Shown: one piece after another, positions 6,368 to 62,369 of the stretch
How the letters are laid out: the number at the start of each line of letters is the position of its first letter
Numbering within the stretch: the stretch's first letter is position 1
Assembly (NCBI GenBank): GCA_963768035.1
Contig: CAVYGJ010000008.1
Location: 26,710-90,709 of the forward strand
From: an uncultured Chloroflexia bacterium
Lineage (GTDB): Bacteria > Chloroflexota > Limnocylindria > Limnocylindrales > CSP1-4
Reading direction: 5' to 3'
DNA: 64,000 nt
Notes under the pieces: generated by a model
The model's database searches: none
What the model saw: only the letters and a program-made list of their open reading frames with translations
Told to the model about the DNA's origin: nothing
Program-made: the position numbers and the translations under genes

Positions 6368-6467
6368 GGTCTCCTCGGTACGCAGGTCCTGCGAGGGGTC
6401 ACCGGATGCTGGCGGGCTCCGCGCTGCTGGAGTCCCGCGCACCGTGCGCAGGGCCATCGGCTCAGTT

Positions 6468-6563
6468 CAAAACCGGTTTAGCAAACCGGTTTAGCGGACA
6501 GTAGTGGGCGTTTCCCTCCGGTGTCAAGCACCTTGCGCGACGGTGGCGAATGTGAACGTTCAC
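6468..6563 (-). promoter_or_regulatory. Sigma70-type promoter with LacI-type operators
   Basis: Minus-strand TTGACA(6527-6522)-N18-TACTGT(6503-6498). Two tandem AAACCGGTTT palindromes at 6470-6479 and 6483-6492. Palindrome GTGAACGTTCAC at 6552-6563. Confidence 0.75.
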
Positions 6564-6661
6564 GGTCCGTTCCGGGCCCGATTCGGGCCCGTTCGCGTGC
6601 CGTTGAGCGGGTCCGGGCCGGCTCGCCACCCGGTCCCGCGGACGGGTGGCATCATCTGGCC

Positions 6662-7033
6662 GTGCTCGACCAGCTGCGCGCGATGCCCGGCGGCGTCCGG
6701 ATCTTCATCGGCTACGCGTTCCTCATCCTCGGCGTCCTGGGGCTGTCCCTGCGCTGGGTCGTCGACCAGGCGATCAGCGCGCCGATCTCGCCCGTCGGCG
6801 TGGTGGCCATGGTCCTGCTCGCGTACACGATCTTCACCACGACCCTCGTGCTCCAGCGCAAGCAGGCGTCCCGCGGCCTGGCCCTCGGCCTGTCGACGCT
6901 GACGCTCCCCGCGATCCCGCTCGCGATCCTCGCGGCGCAGCCGGTGTTCGGGCTGTTCGCCGCGGTGCTCGCGGCGCTGCTGTTCTTCGGGCTCACCCGT
7001 CCCGAGGTCCGGACCTGGCTCAGCGAGCCGTAG
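6662..7033 (+). CDS. Small hypothetical membrane protein (4 TM)
   Basis: Hydrophobic part of ORF 6521..7033 with host-like codon usage. Confidence 0.7.
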   Translation: MLDQLRAMPGGVRIFIGYAFLILGVLGLSLRWVVDQAISAPISPVGVVAMVLLAYTIFTTTLVLQRKQASRGLALGLSTLTLPAIPLAILAAQPVFGLFAAVLAALLFFGLTRPEVRTWLSEP

Positions 7034-53920: not shown

Positions 53921-56900
53921 ATGGCCTCGCCCACGACGTCCCTCACCGGCCCAGCGCCTCGCGCGCCGCGGCCGAGCACGTCGCCCACGGCCGAGGATCG
54001 GGGGCCGCTCGAGCCCCCGCCCCCTCCCGCGCCGCTGCCGCTCGAGCAGCACCTCCGCAACTTGGGCAATCCGGCGGCGCTCGGGTCCGTATCATTCGCG
54101 CCCAGCGGAGTGCCGCATCCGGGGAACCCGGCGGCGGCGTCGGAGTGGGGAGCGGAGGGGCATGCGCTCATCGGCGTCGGACCCGGGCGGCCTGGACGCG
54201 GGCTTCGTGCGGGCCTGATGAGCCAGTACCCGTTCCCCATCACAGGCGCGAAGATCCATTCGCCCCTCCTGCGATCGGACACACTGTCGCGGCCGCGGCT
54301 CAACGACTGGCTGGACCGCGCAGCGGCGGGTCGCGTGGCGCTGATCGTCGCGGAGGCAGGGTTCGGGAAGACGACGCTGCTCGCGGACTGGGCGGCCCGG
54401 ACCCCACGTCGGATCGCGTGGTATCGACTCGAGCCCGATGACAAGGACTGGCTCGTCTTCCTGCGCCACCTGGTCGCCGCCGGTCGCGAGCTCGACCCCG
54501 ACTTCGCCGCCGACTCGCTGGAGCTGATCCTCGCGCTCGGGTCCGGCGGGCCGCAGCAGGAGGACATCGTCGCGTCGCTCGTGCGCGAGTACGGCGACTT
54601 CGCGGCGACGCAGCCCGATGGGCTGACCCTCATCCTCGACGACCACCACGCCATCGATGGCTCGACCGGAGACCGACGCGATCCTCCGGTCGCTCATCGA
54701 GCGGACGGGCAGCGGGTTCTCGATCGTCATCGCGTCACGCGCGGCGCCGAAGGTGCCCCTCGGCCGGCTGCGCGCACGAGGCGGCCTGAGCCGGATCGAG
54801 GGCGAGGACCTCTGCTTCGACGTCCCGGAGACGGACCGGCTGTTCCGCGAGGCCTACAACCGGCCGCTCGAGCCCGACATCGTCGCGGAGCTGATCAAGC
54901 GGACCGAGGGATGGGCCGCCCTCCTCACGCTCGTGCGCACGAGCCTCGAGGACAAGGACGCGCCCGAGGCCCGGGCCCTCGTCGCCCAGCTCAGCGCCAC
55001 CCACGGCGACCTGTACGACTTCCTCGCGGAAGAGGTGCTCGAGACGCTGTCGCCTTCGCAGCAGCGCTTCCTCACCCGAGTGTCGGTCCTCGTCTCGGTC
55101 GATGCGGAGACGGGCTCCCTCGTCGACGGCCGGCCGCCCGCCGAGCTCGCGCCAGTGATCGCCGAGGCCGAGACGCTCGGCCTCCTCACCCGTCCCGACC
55201 GCGAGTCCCCGCACCGCTTCCATCCCCTGGTCCGCGACTTCCTCGTCGCCCGCCTCCGCGAAGAAGTCGGCGACGCACGAGTCCGAGAGATGCACGCGAT
55301 GGTGGCCGAGGCATCTCGAGTTCCGGCGACTGGTACGGCTCAGCTTGGCACTACCGAGCGGCCGGCCGACGGTCATGGATGCGGAACGGGTAGTCGATGC
55401 AGCGGTTGGCGACATCATCGCAACTGGAACGTTTGAGCGCGCGGCGCCGTTTCTCGATGGGTCAGCAGGGTCGATTGATCGACCAGCTGCGCTGATCTTG
55501 CTCTCGCGGCTGGAGTTCGGTCGCGGTCAGATCGCGACGGCACTCCGACTCGCACGAACCGCGGTCGAGCGTTCATCAGGTATCCGCGTATTCGGCACCG
55601 CGCTGCTGAACCTAGCCTGGCCTGCAGGGCGTAGCGGGCTACAGTGACGACGGGGTTGCCCTGGCGACGCAAGCCTTGAGTGCCGACCTTCTGACTCCGA
55701 GCGGGCGATCGCTCAAGCGATCGTGTCACTCAGGACTCTCGCCGACGACGGTGATCTCGAGGAGGGTGCGGCGTTCCTTCGCAACCTCGCAAGCCAGCAG
55801 ATCCGAGATGGGCAACGACGGTACGCGGCTATTACGTTGCTTATCCTCTCCTCGGCCTTGACGTGGCTCGGTCGACCCAGCGAGGCGCTCGATGCTGCCA
55901 ATGCAGCGAGTGTCGAGATCCTCGCCAGTGGGGCTAGGGGCGTGGAGCTCGTGTCCATCCTGCTCGCCCGCGCGGCGGCATACCTTCACCTCGGCATGAG
56001 AGAGCGGGCCGAGTCGGCTCTGGCTGAGGCGGCGAGCGCGAGCTCCGACCTCACATCGGACGAGGTCCACCTCGAGACTGGTCGCCTGTTCGCGGCCCTC
56101 GGCGCGTTGGCGCCGGCAGAATCTCGCTCTGAGCAGGGTCGCCGAGGACGGCTTGGCCGATGGATATGCAACGATCTACGCAGCGTCAATGCTCTCCTTA
56201 GCAATTCGCAGGCGCACCCTCGACGAGTCAACGACCCGGCTCGAGATCCTCCGCCAGCATGCGAACACCGAGATCGCCGAGCCGACTGCAACTGGAGATC
56301 TTCGCGATCCGCGTCGCCCTGCTCCGTGGTGAGAACGCGACGTCTGCGATCGAGGCTGCGGCCACCCTTGCCAGGAGCAGCAGTCGAGGGTCGGTCGCGC
56401 GGCTCATGCAGTTGCTAGCTGACGTAAGTGACGAGCGGGCACACTGCACTCGTCGATCACCAGCATCCCGGACGAGCTCAGCTACTGCCTCTCACTCGTG
56501 GCTGAGGAAGTTGCTCACGCGGCTCACCGGCTGTCGCCCTCAGCGTCCGCACGCGTTCGTGACGAAGTTGAGCTTCGCCCTGATCGATGGCGTGAGGCGT
56601 TGCGGTCTGAGATTGAGCAAGGTGGCCTGAGCGCCTTGGCGTGCGCCGAGTTGCTGCTCGAGATTGGCACGAACGAGGATGCCGCAGCGCTCCGAGCAGT
56701 TGCCGCCAAGACAAAGGAGCTCCGTCCTGCCGCGCTAGCGACTCACGAATCGACTAGCCGAGCCAGTAGTCGTTCACGATCTCGGCCCAGTGACGGTAAG
56801 CCTGGGTGATACGACCGTTCGCATTGTTCGTCGCAAGGTGCTGGCGCTCCTGTGCTTCCTAATCACAAAGCCCAACATGGCGGCAACCCGCGACGAGATT

Positions 56901-57465
56901 CTTGAGGCCCTGTGGGCTGACCTGACTCCCGACACAGCAGGCAACTCACTGCACCAGACCATCTACTTCCTTCGGCGAATATTTGAACCGGACTTCCGAG
57001 AAGGGCTCAGCGCCAAGTACGTCAACTACGACGGTGAGATTGCCGGCCTCAATCGCCGATCGCGTGTCAAGTGACAGTCGCTCCTGCTGGAGGTCGATCG
57101 AGGCTGGCACAGCGGACGTGGCTGCGTTCACCGAGCTCCTCTCGACCTATCGCGGCCGCTTCGCGCTTGACTTCGCGTATGAGGAGTGGGCGACCGACTA
57201 CCGAGACACACTGCACGCGGCCGTGCTGTCGGCTGCGGAGGCCGCGGTCGTGCGGGCGACCAGCGAAGGCGATGTCGACACGGCAGTGCTCATCGCTCAG
57301 CGGATTCTCGAGGTCGATCCAGAGGCCGACGCGATCGAGGCGAGCCTTCTGCGAACGTACAGGGAGGCGGGCCGAACGGCCGCCGCGGCGGAACAGTACG
57401 CCCACTACTCGTCCGCGCTTCGCGACGATCTAGGCGTCGAGGCGCCGACCTTGGAGGATGTCTAG
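53921..57465 (+). CDS. Large regulator: MalT-like ATPase + TPR-like helices + C-terminal wHTH/BTAD (many frameshifts)
   Basis: KIHSP..RPRL, Walker A AEAGFGKTTLL, LILDDHH, RTEGWAA, YDFLAEEVL and RFHPLVRDFL. C-terminal DLGP, RRKVLALLCFL, RDEILEALW, NSLHQTIYFLRR and YRGRFALDFAYEEW. The start could also be 54218. Confidence 0.75.
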
Positions 57466-57530
57466 GATCGCGTGGCAGCCGGCAACGGCATCGCCACCCA
57501 CGTACCGGTGGGCATAGGTAGGGTTGCGTA

Positions 57531-57560
57531 TTGACCGGTGTAGACGGCCAAACCTAGAGT
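57531..57560 (+). promoter_or_regulatory. Sigma70-type promoter upstream of the riboswitch
   Basis: TTGACC-N18-TAGAGT. Confidence 0.55.
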
Positions 57561-57589
57561 ACGGCCTGCACTAGTACGAACGTACGGTG

Positions 57590-57676
57590 CATCAAGGAAA
57601 CGCTCGGACGCGCTGATACCACCACCTGAATTGGGCACTTAGGGTGGAGGTGGAGCGAGTAGTGCAACCGACCGAC
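57590..57676 (+). ncRNA. c-di-GMP-II-like riboswitch aptamer
   Basis: GGAAAC(57596)..AATTGGGCACTT(57629-57640)..GAGCGAGTAGTGCAACCGACC(57653-57673). GCACT/AGTGC pseudoknot pairing matches class-II hallmarks, and it lies upstream of an HD-GYP gene. Confidence 0.75.
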
Positions 57677-57697
57677 TTTCGAGTCTGGTCGGTTTTC
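57666..57697 (+). terminator. Riboswitch expression-platform terminator
   Basis: AACCGACC-GACT-ttcg-AGTC-t-GGTCGGTT-TT; its 5' arm overlaps the aptamer 3' end. Confidence 0.75.
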
Positions 57698-57736
57698 GTG
57701 TTCCTACGGACACGGAGGCCGCAAGGAGGAACGAGC

Positions 57737-57769
57737 GTGGCACCCAACAAAGGCCTCAAGGGCTGGTAG
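57737..57769 (+). CDS. Micro-ORF, 10 aa MAPNKGLKGW
   Basis: AAGGAGGA RBS 6 nt upstream of GTG. GTG GCA CCC AAC AAA GGC CTC AAG GGC TGG TAG. Shares LKG-aromatic with the next ORF. Confidence 0.55.
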   Translation: MAPNKGLKGW

Positions 57770-57790
57770 CAGGACTCGGAGGATCGACCG

Positions 57791-57882
57791 ATGAAGGATC
57801 GCCTCATGCGAGTCCTGGCTCTCGATTAGCGCAGTCGCCGCTGTTGGCGCTCGCTGGCGGGGCATCGCTAAAGGGCTTCTGT
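57791..57882 (+). CDS. Putative peptide-signal precursor, reconstructed MKDRLMRVLALISAVAALALAGGASLKGF (needs indel correction)
   Basis: GGAGGA RBS with ATG at 57791. As sequenced it stops at 57829, but consecutive frames read ISAVAA and LALAGGASLKGF followed by TG. Neighbouring genes are equally indel-rich. Confidence 0.5.
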
Positions 57883-57970
57883 CAGGGACTACACCTCAGT
57901 ACTCAAGTCCTCTTCACCCACTCGGGTGATGGGGCTAGAGTCCGCGCAAGTTGCGTGAACTGAGGTGCTG

Positions 57971-59387
57971 ATGCCGAGACAGCTGAAGCTCTACATCACT
58001 GGGGTCGTGGCAGTCGGCGCACTCGCGCTGGTCGTCACGACCCTTGTGATTCCCGTTGATCCGCTGATCGGCTGAGGGGTTCGGACGCACTCGGGCCTGC
58101 AGCCACAGCAGTTGGCTCTGCTCGTTCTGGACCCTGCGTCACCCTTGTCGCGTCGGCGCTGCCGGTGCCGGATGCCCCGCGGAACGATGGTCGGCGTATC
58201 CATCGCACCATCTGATCGCCGCAACAGCCCTTGGTGGCCCGACCGCCGGCGCCTGGGTCGCGCTCTTGGGACCACCGAGATGCGCGAGCTGCGCGGCCGC
58301 ATCCCTTGGTACGGAACGCTGGCAAATCACGCCGGCCTGCTGCTACCCACGTTCGCAGCGGGCATGGCTGATGCGCCTGTTCCACGTTCCGAGCGCTGAA
58401 GCCTCGGTGTTCGCTGACTCTCGTCGCCACGATGTTCGCGTCCGTCGTCTTCTTTGCTCTCAATGCGACGCTCATCAGCCACCCTCGTTGCCCTCCGCAC
58501 CGAGCAGCCCTTCGAGACCGTCCTGCTGGGTGACACTCGGGGCTTCGCGACCAGCCTCGTGGGCCTGCGCCCCGATCGGTTGGCTGATGTCACAGATGTA
58601 CGTGGTCGCGTGGTGGGCGAGCCTGTTGTTCGTCGTGCCGCTCTACACGACCCGGCTCGCGTACCACAACTTCATCGAGATGCGGGAGATGTTCACCCAG
58701 ACGATCACCGCGCTGGCCGGCGCGGTGGACAAGCGGGACCCGTACACGAGCAAGCACAGCTGGCGCGTGAAGGAGATCGCGGGGGACATCGGGCGGGCGA
58801 TGCGCCTGGGCGAGGCGGACCTCGAGGCGCTCGAGTGGGGCGGCCTGCTCCACGACGTCGGCAAGATCGGCGTGCCGGACAACGTGCTGCACAAGCAGGA
58901 GCGGCTCAACAAGGAAGAGCGGATGCTCATGAACGCGCACCCGGTGCTGGGCGCGCAGATCATCCAGCCGGTCACGCGGCTGTCCCGCGAGCTGCCGATC
59001 ATCCGCCACCACCACGAGTGGTACAACGGCTCGGGGTACCCGGACCGGCTCATCGGCGACGAGATCCCGCTGCTCGCGCGGATCCTCCACGTCGCGGACG
59101 CGTTCGAGGCCATGACCGCCCAGCGGCCGTACCGGATGACGCCGCTCACCGCAGAGCAGGCGCTCGGCGAGCTCCGCAAGTTCGCCGGCATCCAGTTCGA
59201 TCCCAAGGTCGTGGACGCGTTCGTCCGCACGACCTGGGTCGAGGGCGTGAACGACCCTGGCCGCACGGTCCAGTCCCGCCCGATCCCGATGATCAGCCAG
59301 CACGCGAACCGCGCGGCGGCCGTCCCCTCCCCCCTCGCCGTCAACAGCAATCTGCCGGTGCCGGGCTCGCCGGCCGACGTGTCCTGA
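57971..59387 (+). CDS. Membrane-sensor HD-GYP phosphodiesterase (N-terminal multi-TM domain frameshifted)
   Basis: GAGGTG RBS with MPRQLKLYITGVVAVG. TM segments VASALPVRMPRG..ALGGP..PWYGTLANHA. Catalytic motifs KRDPYTSKHS, LLHDVGKIG, HHHEWYNGSGYP and VADAFEAMT..RPYR. Confidence 0.88.
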
Positions 59388-59466: not shown

Positions 59467-61599
59467 ATGCTGATCGGCGGTATCGCGCTCGGACTGGTGC
59501 TGGGCCTCGTGCTCGGCGGCAGGCTCGACCGCCTGGCGGACATCCGCCTCCAGTACCTGCCGCTCCTGTTCCTCGCGGTCATCGTCCGCTTCGGGACGGA
59601 GATCCTGCTGGGCCGCGGCGTCGAGATCGTCGACACGCTCCGGATGCCGCTCCTCGGCACGGCCTACGGCCTCCTGCTGTTCACGCTGTGGCACAACCGG
59701 ACGTACCCGGGCCTCGCGCTCGCCTTCGTCGGCATCGCGAGCAACGGGCTCGTCATCCTCGTCAACGGCGGCCGGATGCCGGTCTGGATGGACGCCTACC
59801 GGCTGAGCGGCCTCACCGGCGACCTCAACTCGGTCCTCCACGTCCCGCTCGAGACGCTCGACGCGGAGTTCTTCCTCCGCCTCGGCCCGCTCGCGGACAT
59901 CATCCCGCTCCCCCTCCCGCCATTCCAGAACGTCGCGTCGATCGGCGACCTGTTCCTCACCGCGGGCCTCGGCTTCTTCCTGTTCGCGACGCTCCTGCGC
60001 ACGCCCGCCGAGGCACAGCAGGAGCTCGACGAGGCGCGCGAGGGACACCTCGTGGGCGTCAGCGGGACCGCCCGCCTCCGCGCACCCGGCGCCCATCCGG
60101 CCGGCACGGCGGCGACGATCCCGGCGAGCACCGGCCTCAGCCCGGCACTCGAGGAGTCGGCCGCGCTCGAACGGCCGCTCCGCCTCGGGTCGAGCGGGGC
60201 CGGCCTCGCCTCACCCGCCCTCAGCGTTCGTCCCGAGGCCGCGCTCGAGGGTGCCGGCACCGCCGGAACCGCGGGCGCAACCGCCGTCGGTGTCGGACGT
60301 CCCCGTCGCTCCACCCTCGCCAGGGTCCGCCGTCACCCGTACGTGCGCCTCGCGCTCAACGGCTCGTTCTCCGCGCTCTGGTTCGGCCAGCTCATCAGCC
60401 TGTTCGGCGACCGGGTCAACCAGATCGCCCTCATCTACTTCGTGTTCGAGATCACGAAGTCGCCGCTCCACGTGGCGCTGTTGTTCGTCGCGTTCAACGT
60501 GCCGAACCTGCTCTTCTCCCCGGTCGCGGGCGCCCTCGTGGACCGCTGGGATCACAAGCAGGTCCTCGTGGTGTCGGACATCCTCCGGGCATCGCTGGTG
60601 CTCCTCGTCCCGGTCGCGATCTCGATCAACATCTGGCTCGCCTACCCGATCGTGTTCCTGATCACGACCGTGTCGCTGTTCTTCCGACCCGCCCGGATCT
60701 CGATCCTCCCGCGCCTCGTCCGCGACGGCGAGCTGCTCTCGGCCAACTCGGCGATGTGGGTGGGCGAGACGATCGCGGACGTCGTCAACTACCCGCTCGC
60801 CGGCCTGTTCGTGCTGTTCCTCGGCAGCAGCGTGGCGTTGGCCTTCTGGTTCGACGCGGTGACCTACCTCGCCTCCGCCGTCCTGCTCGGGACGATGGTC
60901 GTCCCGCCGGTCGTCCGCCGGACGCGCGCCGCCGTCGACGCCTGGGGCGAGCCGGTCGAGGGCGCACCGGCCGAGCCCGCGGGCCCGCCGACCGTCGCCG
61001 ACATCCGACGCGACCTCAAGGAGGGCTGGGGCTTCCTGCGCACCGAGGCGACCCTCCTCGCGAACACGCTCCAGGGGACGGCGGCACAGTTCGCGGTCGG
61101 CGTCGTGACGGCCTTGAGCTTCATCATCGCGGAGCAGATCGATCCGACCACGAAGGCCGCCACCTACGCGTTCATGGAGACCGCGATCGGCGTGGGCAAC
61201 CTCGTCGGCGGCTTCGCGCTGGGGCTCATCGCGACGAGGGTGGCCAAGGGTCGGCTGATCATCGCCGCGTACACGATCTTCGGTTTGCTCGTGATCCTCG
61301 TGGGCTTCATCCCGACGCTCCCGGTGATGCTCGGGCTGATGTTCGGGATCGGCGTCGCGAACATGGCGTTCGTCATCCCCAGCCAGACGCTGTTCCAGGA
61401 GCGCACGCCGCCCGAGCTGATGGCACGTGTCGTGAGCTTCCGGTTCGCGCTCGTGTTCGGCGGGATGACGATCGCGACGACCTTCGCGGGCCTGGTGGCG
61501 AACGTGACCGGCGTCGGGCCGGTGATCGTGGTCGCGGGTCTCATCTCCGTCGTCGCCGGTCTCGCGGGCCTGTTCTTCAGCGCCGTCCGGGACGCCTGA
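59467..61599 (+). CDS. DUF5317-domain / MFS transporter fusion protein
   Basis: N-terminal GGRLDRLA, NGLVILVNGGRMPV, LADII and SIGD motifs of DUF5317, a low-complexity linker, then MFS_3-like FSALWFGQLISLFGD, GALVDRWDHK and QERTPPELMARV. One uninterrupted 710-aa ORF. Confidence 0.85.
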   Translation: MLIGGIALGLVLGLVLGGRLDRLADIRLQYLPLLFLAVIVRFGTEILLGRGVEIVDTLRMPLLGTAYGLLLFTLWHNRTYPGLALAFVGIASNGLVILVNGGRMPVWMDAYRLSGLTGDLNSVLHVPLETLDAEFFLRLGPLADIIPLPLPPFQNVASIGDLFLTAGLGFFLFATLLRTPAEAQQELDEAREGHLVGVSGTARLRAPGAHPAGTAATIPASTGLSPALEESAALERPLRLGSSGAGLASPALSVRPEAALEGAGTAGTAGATAVGVGRPRRSTLARVRRHPYVRLALNGSFSALWFGQLISLFGDRVNQIALIYFVFEITKSPLHVALLFVAFNVPNLLFSPVAGALVDRWDHKQVLVVSDILRASLVLLVPVAISINIWLAYPIVFLITTVSLFFRPARISILPRLVRDGELLSANSAMWVGETIADVVNYPLAGLFVLFLGSSVALAFWFDAVTYLASAVLLGTMVVPPVVRRTRAAVDAWGEPVEGAPAEPAGPPTVADIRRDLKEGWGFLRTEATLLANTLQGTAAQFAVGVVTALSFIIAEQIDPTTKAATYAFMETAIGVGNLVGGFALGLIATRVAKGRLIIAAYTIFGLLVILVGFIPTLPVMLGLMFGIGVANMAFVIPSQTLFQERTPPELMARVVSFRFALVFGGMTIATTFAGLVANVTGVGPVIVVAGLISVVAGLAGLFFSAVRDA

Positions 61600-61697: not shown

Positions 61698-62369
61698 ATG
61701 ACCGACCAGGAGCGTGACCCGGAGAGCGCCGCCGGCGCCGAGGGCACGACTGACACGCCCGCCGACGACGCCCCGACGGAGGCGATCGAGACGCCCGTCG
61801 CCGCGCCCGAACCCGAGCCGGTCGTCGAGGCCGAGCAGGCCGAGGTCGAGGCTGAGGTCGAGGCCGAAGCCGAGGTCGAGGCGGCCGCCGAGGCCGACGA
61901 CGAAGCCGACGCCGACGAGGTCGAAGCCGAGGCCGAGGCCGACGACGAAGCCGACGAGGCCGAGGCCGACGAGGCGCCGGTCGCCGCCGCAGCCGCCGGT
62001 GCGGCCGTCGCCGCCGGGGCCAGCCGCAAGACGCCGCGTGGCGCCCCCGCCAAGAAGCCCGCCGCCGCGCCGACCGTCTCGGAGCAGGCAGTCCGTGTCG
62101 ACGACCGCGCGTCGGGCATCTTCGTCCTCACGATCGTCGGCGTGTTCATCGCGATCTTCGTGTTCGCGATGCTGTTCGGCTACGGCAGCTTCTTCGGCAA
62201 CGTGTTCAAGGCGGCGCCGACGCCGACCCCCGTCGTGACGCCCGCTCCCTCGGCGAGCGCGTCCGCCTCCCCGAGCGCGTCCGCCGCGCCCAGCGTCTCC
62301 GTGGCACCCAGCGCCTCGCCGGTCGCCAGCCCGTCGGCGGCACCCTCTCCGAGCCCCTCGGCGAGCTGA
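61698..62369 (+). CDS. Single-TM protein with acidic E/A/D-rich N-terminus and Ser/Pro/Ala tail
   Basis: AGGAG RBS, low-complexity ends, and core SEQAVRVDDRAS plus TM. Confidence 0.7.
   Translation: MTDQERDPESAAGAEGTTDTPADDAPTEAIETPVAAPEPEPVVEAEQAEVEAEVEAEAEVEAAAEADDEADADEVEAEAEADDEADEAEADEAPVAAAAAGAAVAAGASRKTPRGAPAKKPAAAPTVSEQAVRVDDRASGIFVLTIVGVFIAIFVFAMLFGYGSFFGNVFKAAPTPTPVVTPAPSASASASPSASAAPSVSVAPSASPVASPSAAPSPSPSAS

Follow-up and report, generated by a model that had tools for sequence, protein, structure and literature searches.

Signal peptidase II, small regulatory membrane proteins, DHA3-type transporters and the membrane sensor domains of cyclic di-GMP (c-di-GMP) enzymes are the described systems closest to the locus considered here, a plus-strand gene (59467-61599) encoding a 710-amino-acid (aa) protein in which a DUF5317 domain (PF17248) is joined to a transporter of the major facilitator superfamily (MFS). 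The gene lies in a 64-kb window, namely the whole stretch of DNA analyzed, taken from contig CAVYGJ010000008.1 of an uncultured Chloroflexota bacterium. LspA, the signal peptidase II (MEROPS A8, PF01252), is, as DUF5317 is, a small polytopic membrane protein with two invariant Asp residues that are separated by 17-19 positions and flank a short beta element preceding the last helix, and in both cases the Asp pair is probably found at the outer membrane face. However, the other conserved residues visible in the LspA alignment have no counterpart in DUF5317, LspA has four helices and DUF5317 five, and the LspA substrate carries a lipobox Cys, whereas the peptide that accompanies DUF5317 is devoid of Cys.

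MgrB acts on PhoQ and AcrZ on AcrB, both being small membrane proteins that feed back on sensors or pumps. The micro-protein encoded in the locus described here is similar to them in its size of about 30 aa, its single helix, its presumed induction by a pathway that it may in turn control and its position beside a likely membrane partner; in this case, however, induction would take place via a c-di-GMP riboswitch, and the partner would be DUF5317. As for the DHA3-type MFS transporters, such as Mef(A), EntS and LplT, the 12-helix C-terminal domain of the fusion matches the same models (MFS_1, MFS_3 and TIGR00900), but it differs from them in its N-terminal DUF5317, in its c-di-GMP operon setting and in its TIGR00900 (DHA3) score of 201 bits, which is under the NCBIfam cut-off of 319.6 and does not secure the subfamily label. 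Finally, MASE9-12 were presented as N-terminal membrane sensor domains of c-di-GMP enzymes in the accessible text of a census preprint of HD-GYP proteins (10.1101/2021.11.05.467447). DUF5317 resembles the MASE domains in being embedded in the membrane, in possessing conserved polar residues and in its association with HD-GYP and GGDEF-EAL proteins; yet, as far as that text goes, a MASE domain is the N-terminal part of the enzyme itself, while DUF5317 stands as its own polypeptide or as part of a transporter fusion.

The constant partners of DUF5317 were found to be a c-di-GMP enzyme and the micro-protein, with the MFS being lineage-specific, and a membrane signaling module is therefore the best supported interpretation. 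In this proposal, for which belief and doubt are evenly balanced, DUF5317 and the micro-protein would together form the conserved membrane-embedded center of a feedback module acting on c-di-GMP, and DUF5317 would not be a relative of signal peptidase II.

Organization of the Operon

The predicted operon of this class runs from a c-di-GMP-II riboswitch through a micro-protein gene of about 29 codons and a gene for a membrane-anchored HD-GYP protein to the DUF5317-MFS gene. The riboswitch aptamer (RF01786; 57597..57680, plus strand) was the sole Rfam match in the 64-kb window, scoring 62.1 bits (E 4e-13; gathering score 53.5) over the full model (1-84), and represents a candidate for ligand binding. 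The same element occupies the same place in three of the four long loci of the window's family and in four of five loci of the sister family; the loci L076 and L098, both of this class, score under the gathering score. About 37 nt upstream of the aptamer, a consensus scan revealed a promoter-like site (TTGACC, 18 nt, TAGAGT; 57531..57560, plus strand), where one site was obtained versus 0.2 expected from shuffles, as a pattern match only. No terminator-like site was detected after the riboswitch in the scan of 57400-58000.

The HD-GYP gene is found directly upstream of DUF5317-MFS both in the window and in the relatives. Its catalytic part (58587..59387, plus strand), comprising the last transmembrane (TM) helix and HD_5, is intact according to Pfam, motifs and the GC content at third codon positions (GC3). 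The HD_5 match (PF13487) reached 140.4 bits (E 6e-41), GC3 was 0.93-1.00, and the HD..GK and HHHE...GSGYP motifs are readable in the translation of 58266-59387. The protein also matches the NCBIfam c-di-GMP phosphodiesterase model, albeit under its cut-off. The product is predicted to be an HD-GYP c-di-GMP phosphodiesterase. In the relatives, this protein has 459-480 aa with a multi-helix N-terminal domain, for which a MASE9 (PF20972) match was observed in one of three full-length relatives, at 22.4 bits versus a cut-off of 24.3, and in neither of the other two.

In the window, the multi-TM N-terminal domain of the HD-GYP protein persists as a remnant (57971..58586, plus strand) dispersed over three frames with an in-frame TGA, which was recognized by comparing the three-frame translation with the intact proteins of L076-L078 and which displays no GC3 periodicity. 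Single-base indels abound at 57790-58586, numbering about 20 in comparison with a 91%-alike contig, and the sequence is clean from 58587 on; either a local assembly problem or a real decay of the sensor half took place. Contigs from two independent public sequencing runs, 91-97% alike, do not carry the extra bases at 57819, 57844, 57954 and 57967; the contig X1 presents 20 gaps over 57713-58603, and the pieces listed downstream of 58677 are gap-free. Among the public sequencing runs, none reaches half of the words, the best being 0.37.

Two further observations concern the surroundings of the riboswitch. A SARP-like regulator is seemingly split over overlapping frames (Trans_reg_C at 56790-57074, BTAD/TPR at 56983-57465) and may represent a further frameshift just upstream of the aptamer. 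Moreover, elsewhere in the window's own genome (G000), a weak RF01786-like match (C7:123644-123722; 29 bits, under the gathering score) sits 2.7 kb upstream of another HD-GYP (C7:126430-126909, in a 696-aa frame).

Gene Neighborhoods of DUF5317

All gene-context evidence was drawn from one phylum, in which DUF5317 was present in 92 of the 301 sampled genomes, a tally that takes in the unpublished genome G266. An exhaustive search recovered 1,928 representative DUF5317 clusters; a search started from a single distant DUF5317 protein returned 116 pattern matches, none of which was confirmed. In a control, Thermotoga and Thermus genomes also gave a signal. Thirty stand-alone DUF5317 loci distributed over the phylum were inspected within 1.5 kb, and an HD-GYP gene was found in 14, a homologue of the same MFS in 5, a GGDEF-type gene in 2 (one of them also with HD-GYP) and none of these in 10. 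In L092, one of two previously negative loci, an HD-GYP gene at 1.3 kb became visible with a wider flank, and L093, examined over 10 kb, harbors an unknown protein and a histidine kinase. Considering that only three HD_5 genes exist in the 3.6 Mb of the window's own genome, the adjacency between HD-GYP and DUF5317 is far above chance. Two arrangements were recognized: in the first (type A), a multi-TM HD-GYP gene precedes DUF5317, the two genes either overlapping or being separated by 2-30 nt; in the second, DUF5317 is followed about 300 nt on by a soluble HD-GYP, which in one instance carries PAS and GAF.

In the five loci with an MFS neighbor, the MFS, with 12 helices, is the C-terminal half of an 844-847-aa protein that starts with a membrane domain and HD-GYP. 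This TM-HD-GYP-MFS protein is followed by stand-alone DUF5317 in five of the six genomes of family f17 (L090 5172-7709, minus strand; L094 2086-4617, minus; L095 2858-5398, plus; L096 2119-4653, minus; L097 4243-6783, minus), and the sixth shows the same order with a frame change. No description of this three-part architecture was found in the literature searched. Together with the DUF5317-MFS fusion of the class, it indicates that the same three modules were welded in two ways in two lineages, and the use of the fusion as a Rosetta-stone link, advanced in a preliminary description of the gene, gains from the fact that the same MFS adjoins stand-alone DUF5317 in another family. Additionally, HD_5 was located upstream of a DUF5317-matching stretch within the same protein in 2 of 53 longer representatives, with the Pfam DUF5317 match present only in P0218.

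A paralogous module was identified in all four loci from the window's genus, where a GGDEF-EAL gene is followed by an overlapping stand-alone DUF5317 gene, then by a variant c-di-GMP-I-GGC riboswitch (RF03167; L016 2101-2178; L005 2070-2149; L006 2150-2227; L007 1246-1323) and, directly after the riboswitch, by a micro-protein gene. The window's own genome contains RF03167 copies at G000:C12:62342-62439, C2:627534-627608 and C6:170815-170894; a 31-codon hydrophobic open reading frame (ORF) comes after the C12 copy, and a protein of at least 495 aa after the C2 copy. In L082, which belongs to a distant family, a c-di-GMP-II-GAG variant riboswitch (RF03169; 6875-6958, minus strand; 40.9 bits, gathering score 40), followed by two identical tandem 31-codon micro-protein genes (6448-6540 and 6604-6696, minus strand), is located upstream of TM-HD-GYP and DUF5317.

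The Micro-Protein Companion

The preliminary description had mentioned a neighboring precursor whose h-region ends in LALAGG. The corresponding letters do exist at 57844, 1.6 kb upstream of the fusion gene, but the window as assembled contains no intact ORF for them, given that the micro-protein gene (57791..57879, plus strand) is broken by two 1-nt insertions and a lost stop in comparison with L076-L079. The ATG at 57791 meets a TAG after 12 codons, the LALAGG part falls in another frame, and the stretch lacks codon periodicity; the contigs from runs X1 and X3 are without the extra bases at 57819 and 57844. The small upstream gene is nevertheless a true conserved companion of DUF5317, since it is intact in the loci of the relatives: a 29-codon gene follows the riboswitch in all four family loci, and a gene of 32-45 codons is found at the same place in all five sister-family loci. 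The encoded peptide begins with basic residues, continues as a hydrophobic helix and terminates in a conserved motif. In the family, this motif is AGGASL[KR]GF; for the sister family it is AGGAS[FL][KR][GL]W, shared by four of the five loci, and the fifth copy, that of L098, continues beyond the motif. Substitutions among relatives were distributed over codon positions 1:2:3 as 38:14:81 (six non-independent pairs), as expected of a translated gene.

Fifteen micro-proteins from four lineages could be aligned end to end, revealing an invariant A-x-G-A core. Cys occurs in none of the 15, and the peptide is thus not a lipobox substrate. In other lineages, a hydrophobic small ORF (18-70 codons, at most 500 nt upstream of the first module gene) was present in 13 of 15 loci versus 117 of 934 background windows from the same loci; a motif filter, defined after seeing the sequences, retained 10 of 15 loci versus 18 of 934 background windows.

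The basic start predicts an N-in orientation of the micro-protein, with the conserved motif at the outer level of the membrane. When the DUF5317 domain and the micro-protein of L100 were submitted to complex prediction, a score of 0.55 was obtained, the best of three controls being 0.00; the runs agreed in at least 97% of contacts, and the partner had a predicted local distance difference test (pLDDT) value of at least 73. Of 80 solved complexes, 58 reached the pass mark of this procedure, as did 2 of 110 mismatched pairs, and scores of 0.60 or lower that reached the mark included only 7 of the 80 solved complexes and both mismatches that passed. The majority of passes in this range are incorrect, except where the pairing was already probable. 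This prediction lends weak support to the idea that the DUF5317 domain may contact the micro-protein.

The DUF5317-MFS Fusion

As the preliminary description had noted, DUF5317 and a complete MFS share one uninterrupted ORF (59467-61599, plus strand; 710 aa, whose window numbering is used for all residues), and this was borne out by Pfam and by GC3 in the same frame. The DUF5317 domain comprises aa 1-185 (59467..60021, plus strand), as delimited by Pfam, an AlphaFold2 (AF2) model and alignments, with PF17248 matching aa 26-172 at 86.9 bits versus a cut-off of 25 (E 1.8e-24; profile positions 2-150 of 151). It is followed by a disordered Ala/Gly/Pro-rich linker at aa 191-281 (60037..60309, plus strand), recognized by low pLDDT, GC3 and composition, and by the DHA3-type MFS domain at aa 283-710 (60313..61599 with the stop codon, plus strand), recognized by Pfam, TIGR00900 and model helices. 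Both MFS_1 (PF07690; aa 304-660, 97 bits) and MFS_3 (PF05977; aa 299-704, 69.9 bits) matched above their Pfam cut-offs. GC3 was 0.93-1.00 across the DUF5317 and MFS parts in one shared frame and 0.80-0.90 in the linker (60000-60300), where neither a frame switch nor a stop occurs. The fraction of A+G+P+S+T was 0.62 over aa 186-282. In the full-length AF2 model, the linker (aa 191-281) had a pLDDT of 30-38, and 12 long helices were placed between residues 299 and 703. The predicted template modelling score (pTM) of this model was 0.74, exceeding what the MFS part, with about 415 of the 710 residues, could give alone, which hints that the two membrane domains may be docked against each other.

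In the preliminary description, absence of the fusion from relatives was named as the observation that would argue for an assembly artefact. The fusion was instead found in relatives: PF17248 and MFS families occurred together in 119 of the 120 best homologue clusters, several of which sit on Mb-sized contigs, the single exception being P0059 (585 aa), which is without the N-terminal domain. Frames of fused size (at least 600 aa) were observed in all 15 genomes of the window's family and in 13 of 15 genomes of the sister family, which belongs to the same class; of the two exceptions, one is a 432-aa frame located at the end of a contig and the other a frame of 203 aa. Elsewhere in the phylum, DUF5317 frames had mostly 185-260 aa. 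A tree was inferred for 57 DUF5317 rows, derived from 78 domains after merging identical ones and dropping those with fewer than 120 profile positions, and all 21 fused rows fell in one clade with 100/98 support, together with one row from L011, a locus with an interrupted frame. This single supported clade implies one origin of the fusion. An assembly artefact is ruled out by the GC3 continuity, the 119 of 120 clusters, the 28 of 30 class genomes and the tree, and the DUF5317-MFS fusion is genuine, old and conserved, and arose once.

Two other proteins can be mentioned at this point. P0155 (673 aa) combines DUF5317 and a partial MFS with a Metalloenzyme (PF01676) match overlapping the MFS region, and probably represents a metagenomic chimera or a miscalled protein. 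Immediately downstream of DUF5317-MFS, 61698-62369 encodes a 223-aa protein with no Pfam match, whose N-terminal half is very acidic and rich in Ala and Glu, and which also has a single hydrophobic helix and a tail rich in Pro, Ser and Ala.

Fold of DUF5317 and the Question of LspA

The preliminary description had set motifs of DUF5317 in parallel with those of signal peptidase II and regarded the domain as an intramembrane aspartic peptidase. The motifs themselves correspond to the conserved core of the family, as N77, N93, N100, M104, P105, D144, S158, G160 and D161 showed no variation in either of two alignments, comprising 23 and 30 diverse members; in an alignment of 28 members, N93, N100, M104 and D144 were invariant and N77 and D161 were at least 90% conserved. 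The AF2 model of residues 1-185 (pLDDT 95.4, pTM 0.87) consists of five long helices (2-15, 31-49, 59-75, 83-99, 159-177), not the four of LspA, with a small four-stranded beta-sheet between helices 4 and 5. In this model, D144 and D161, 17 residues apart, are placed at the strand start and the last-helix start of a predicted hairpin and may be close together in space. In an LspA alignment built from the genomes of 12 relatives, the invariant Asp residues are 18 apart and belong to the VVDF and NxAD motifs, and the VDF and NxAD motifs presumably hold the catalytic Asp pair.

The resemblance between the two sets of motifs was perceived by eye, and no alignment program reproduced it. When the LspA alignment was compared with two DUF5317 alignments, hhalign returned probabilities of 9.2% and 1.1%, and the aligned stretch was restricted to 18-20 columns within helix 1, away from the region that had been aligned by eye. 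When the 710-aa protein was scanned against Pfam (E<=0.01), neither PF01252 nor any peptidase family was listed. A profile search of PDB sequences did not retrieve LspA, its best E of 0.24 being due to unrelated chains. As for structure searches, Foldseek gave no match at E<=0.001 against PDB, a wider structure search had no LspA among the 50 matches listed, and a second structure comparison had none among 49 chains. An ESM Atlas feature search with PF17248 left out gave no usable match. Moreover, a canonical LspA of the genome's own is encoded on another contig, where its motifs and gene neighbors are the usual ones, and LspA was present in 31 of 31 relatives and DUF5317 in 21 of 41, showing that the two families are distributed independently. 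Kinship with peptidase A8 is consequently not supported, in view of the profile, PDB-sequence and structure searches without a match, the five helices and a peptide devoid of Cys. The possibility that DUF5317 is a detached copy of the HD-GYP membrane domain was also discarded (hhalign 0.2%).

MFS proteins begin in the cytoplasm, so helix 5 of DUF5317 is expected to run from outside to inside. On this basis, the beta region (residues 100-158), which holds six acidic and three basic residues, would be exposed at the outer face together with D144 and D161, and loops 1 and 3, which are rich in Arg, would be inside. The outer-face placement of the N100/D144/D161 cluster is thus predicted from the MFS fusion and from charge. 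The two invariant Asp residues that would be exposed there may or may not be catalytic.

In the absence of support for kinship, the peptidase idea persists only as a convergent possibility, which is aided by the existence of a real peptide gene and hurt by the c-di-GMP context, and which is judged unlikely. According to it, DUF5317 would be an intramembrane aspartic peptidase convergent with LspA that cuts the micro-protein at ...A-G-G / A-S..., and, at the same low level of confidence, a peptide of 5-8 residues would be freed at the outer face, handled or exported by the MFS and maybe sensed by the HD-GYP membrane domain. The spacing of the two invariant Asp residues, close to that of LspA, around a predicted hairpin before the last helix is in its favor, and so are the constant company of the micro-protein, whose invariant motif is expected at the same membrane level, the weakly supportive complex prediction, in which all controls scored lower, and the linkage of the MFS through two different fusions. 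Nevertheless, DUF5317 has no sequence or profile similarity to LspA and no Pfam peptidase match, 25 of the 30 stand-alone loci are without the MFS, which implies that export by this transporter is not general, the steady c-di-GMP enzyme partner is unexplained by processing and export, and the invariant small-residue motif fits plain helix packing just as well. The most elaborate form of the idea, which is very unlikely, holds that the micro-protein is a riboswitch-controlled pro-peptide clipped by DUF5317 at A-G-G, exported with the aid of the MFS and sensed by the HD-GYP membrane domain as a peptide of 5-8 residues; if true, it would amount to a cell-to-cell or autocrine peptide signal wired into c-di-GMP turnover.

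A Candidate c-di-GMP Feedback Module

The riboswitch and HD-GYP context moves the likeliest role of DUF5317 from peptide processing and export to signaling. In the feedback module favored here, the riboswitch, an element observed at the locus, would bind c-di-GMP and set the expression of the operon. The micro-protein would insert with its N-terminus in and its C-terminus out, as judged from charge, exposing the small-residue motif and a short tail at the outer face, where it may meet the Asn/Asp cluster of DUF5317 (N100, D144 and D161) through the weakly predicted contact. DUF5317, with or without the micro-protein, would then modulate the partner HD-GYP, or the GGDEF-EAL protein in the paralogous module, a step suggested by the conserved adjacency and the alternative fusions. 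The outcome would be a feedback loop on c-di-GMP, which the MFS fusion would couple to transport.

Several points weigh against this feedback module. The contact or regulation between DUF5317 and HD-GYP is deduced from gene context, in which synteny among kin is not independent evidence, and 9 of the 30 stand-alone loci are without a c-di-GMP enzyme in the flanks examined. Outside the class, a riboswitch at the gathering score was found in 1 of 14 wide loci (L082) and in none of four f17 loci, given that L080, L081, L083-L093 and L094-L097 had no such match. The complex prediction for DUF5317 and the micro-protein belongs to the weak class of passes. In addition, the set of five invariant polar residues, two of them Asp residues assigned to the outer face, would be as compatible with catalysis or ion binding as with sensing. 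Lastly, neither the micro-protein gene nor the sensor domain of HD-GYP is intact in the assembled window, and this copy may not function as those of the relatives do.

A role in the clearance of c-di-GMP has also to be considered, in which high c-di-GMP would turn on the HD-GYP protein together with an MFS exporting either c-di-GMP or the product of its degradation, and DUF5317 and the micro-protein would be accessory to the transporter. MFS pumps expel cyclic dinucleotides in Listeria, the riboswitch, phosphodiesterase and MFS share one predicted operon, and HD-GYP is fused straight to the MFS in family f17. However, most DUF5317/HD-GYP pairs are without an MFS, the transporter scores under the curated DHA3 cut-off, and no terminator-like site was found after the riboswitch, whose control may run in either direction; this explanation is regarded as quite unlikely. 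The idea that DUF5317 is an envelope or lipid enzyme working with a flippase-like MFS, as in LplT-Aas fusions, with a merely co-regulated c-di-GMP output, is highly improbable, because the matches of the MFS part to the NCBIfam models of LplT (36.9 bits) and of the MFS half of an acyl-ACP-phospholipid acyltransferase fusion (65.6 bits), which favor it along with the invariant polar cluster at the membrane surface of DUF5317, are far under their cut-offs, with the generic DHA3 model as the best match, and because the tight pairing with HD-GYP where the MFS is absent stays unexplained.

Novelty and Biological Significance

The fusion itself is already present in public databases under the names 'MFS transporter' and 'macrolide efflux protein-like', names of the latter kind being based on similarity only. 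The name DUF5317 was not found in the literature searched, nor was any description of the riboswitch/micro-protein/HD-GYP/DUF5317 module; the accessible text of the HD-GYP census preprint (10.1101/2021.11.05.467447) does not contain the word 'neighbor', and its supplementary figures may show related neighborhoods.

DUF5317 is a widespread family without an assigned role, for which the gene context now offers a candidate function in c-di-GMP signaling. At the same time, a family of membrane micro-proteins of about 30 aa has been uncovered, whose genes are, in this class, the first behind c-di-GMP riboswitches of two classes, and the alternative fusions DUF5317-MFS and HD-GYP-MFS tie a transporter to second-messenger turnover. 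If the feedback module proves true, the public 'macrolide efflux-like' labels attached to these transporters would be misleading, and the locus would represent a novel bacterial means of closing, at the membrane, a feedback loop on c-di-GMP.

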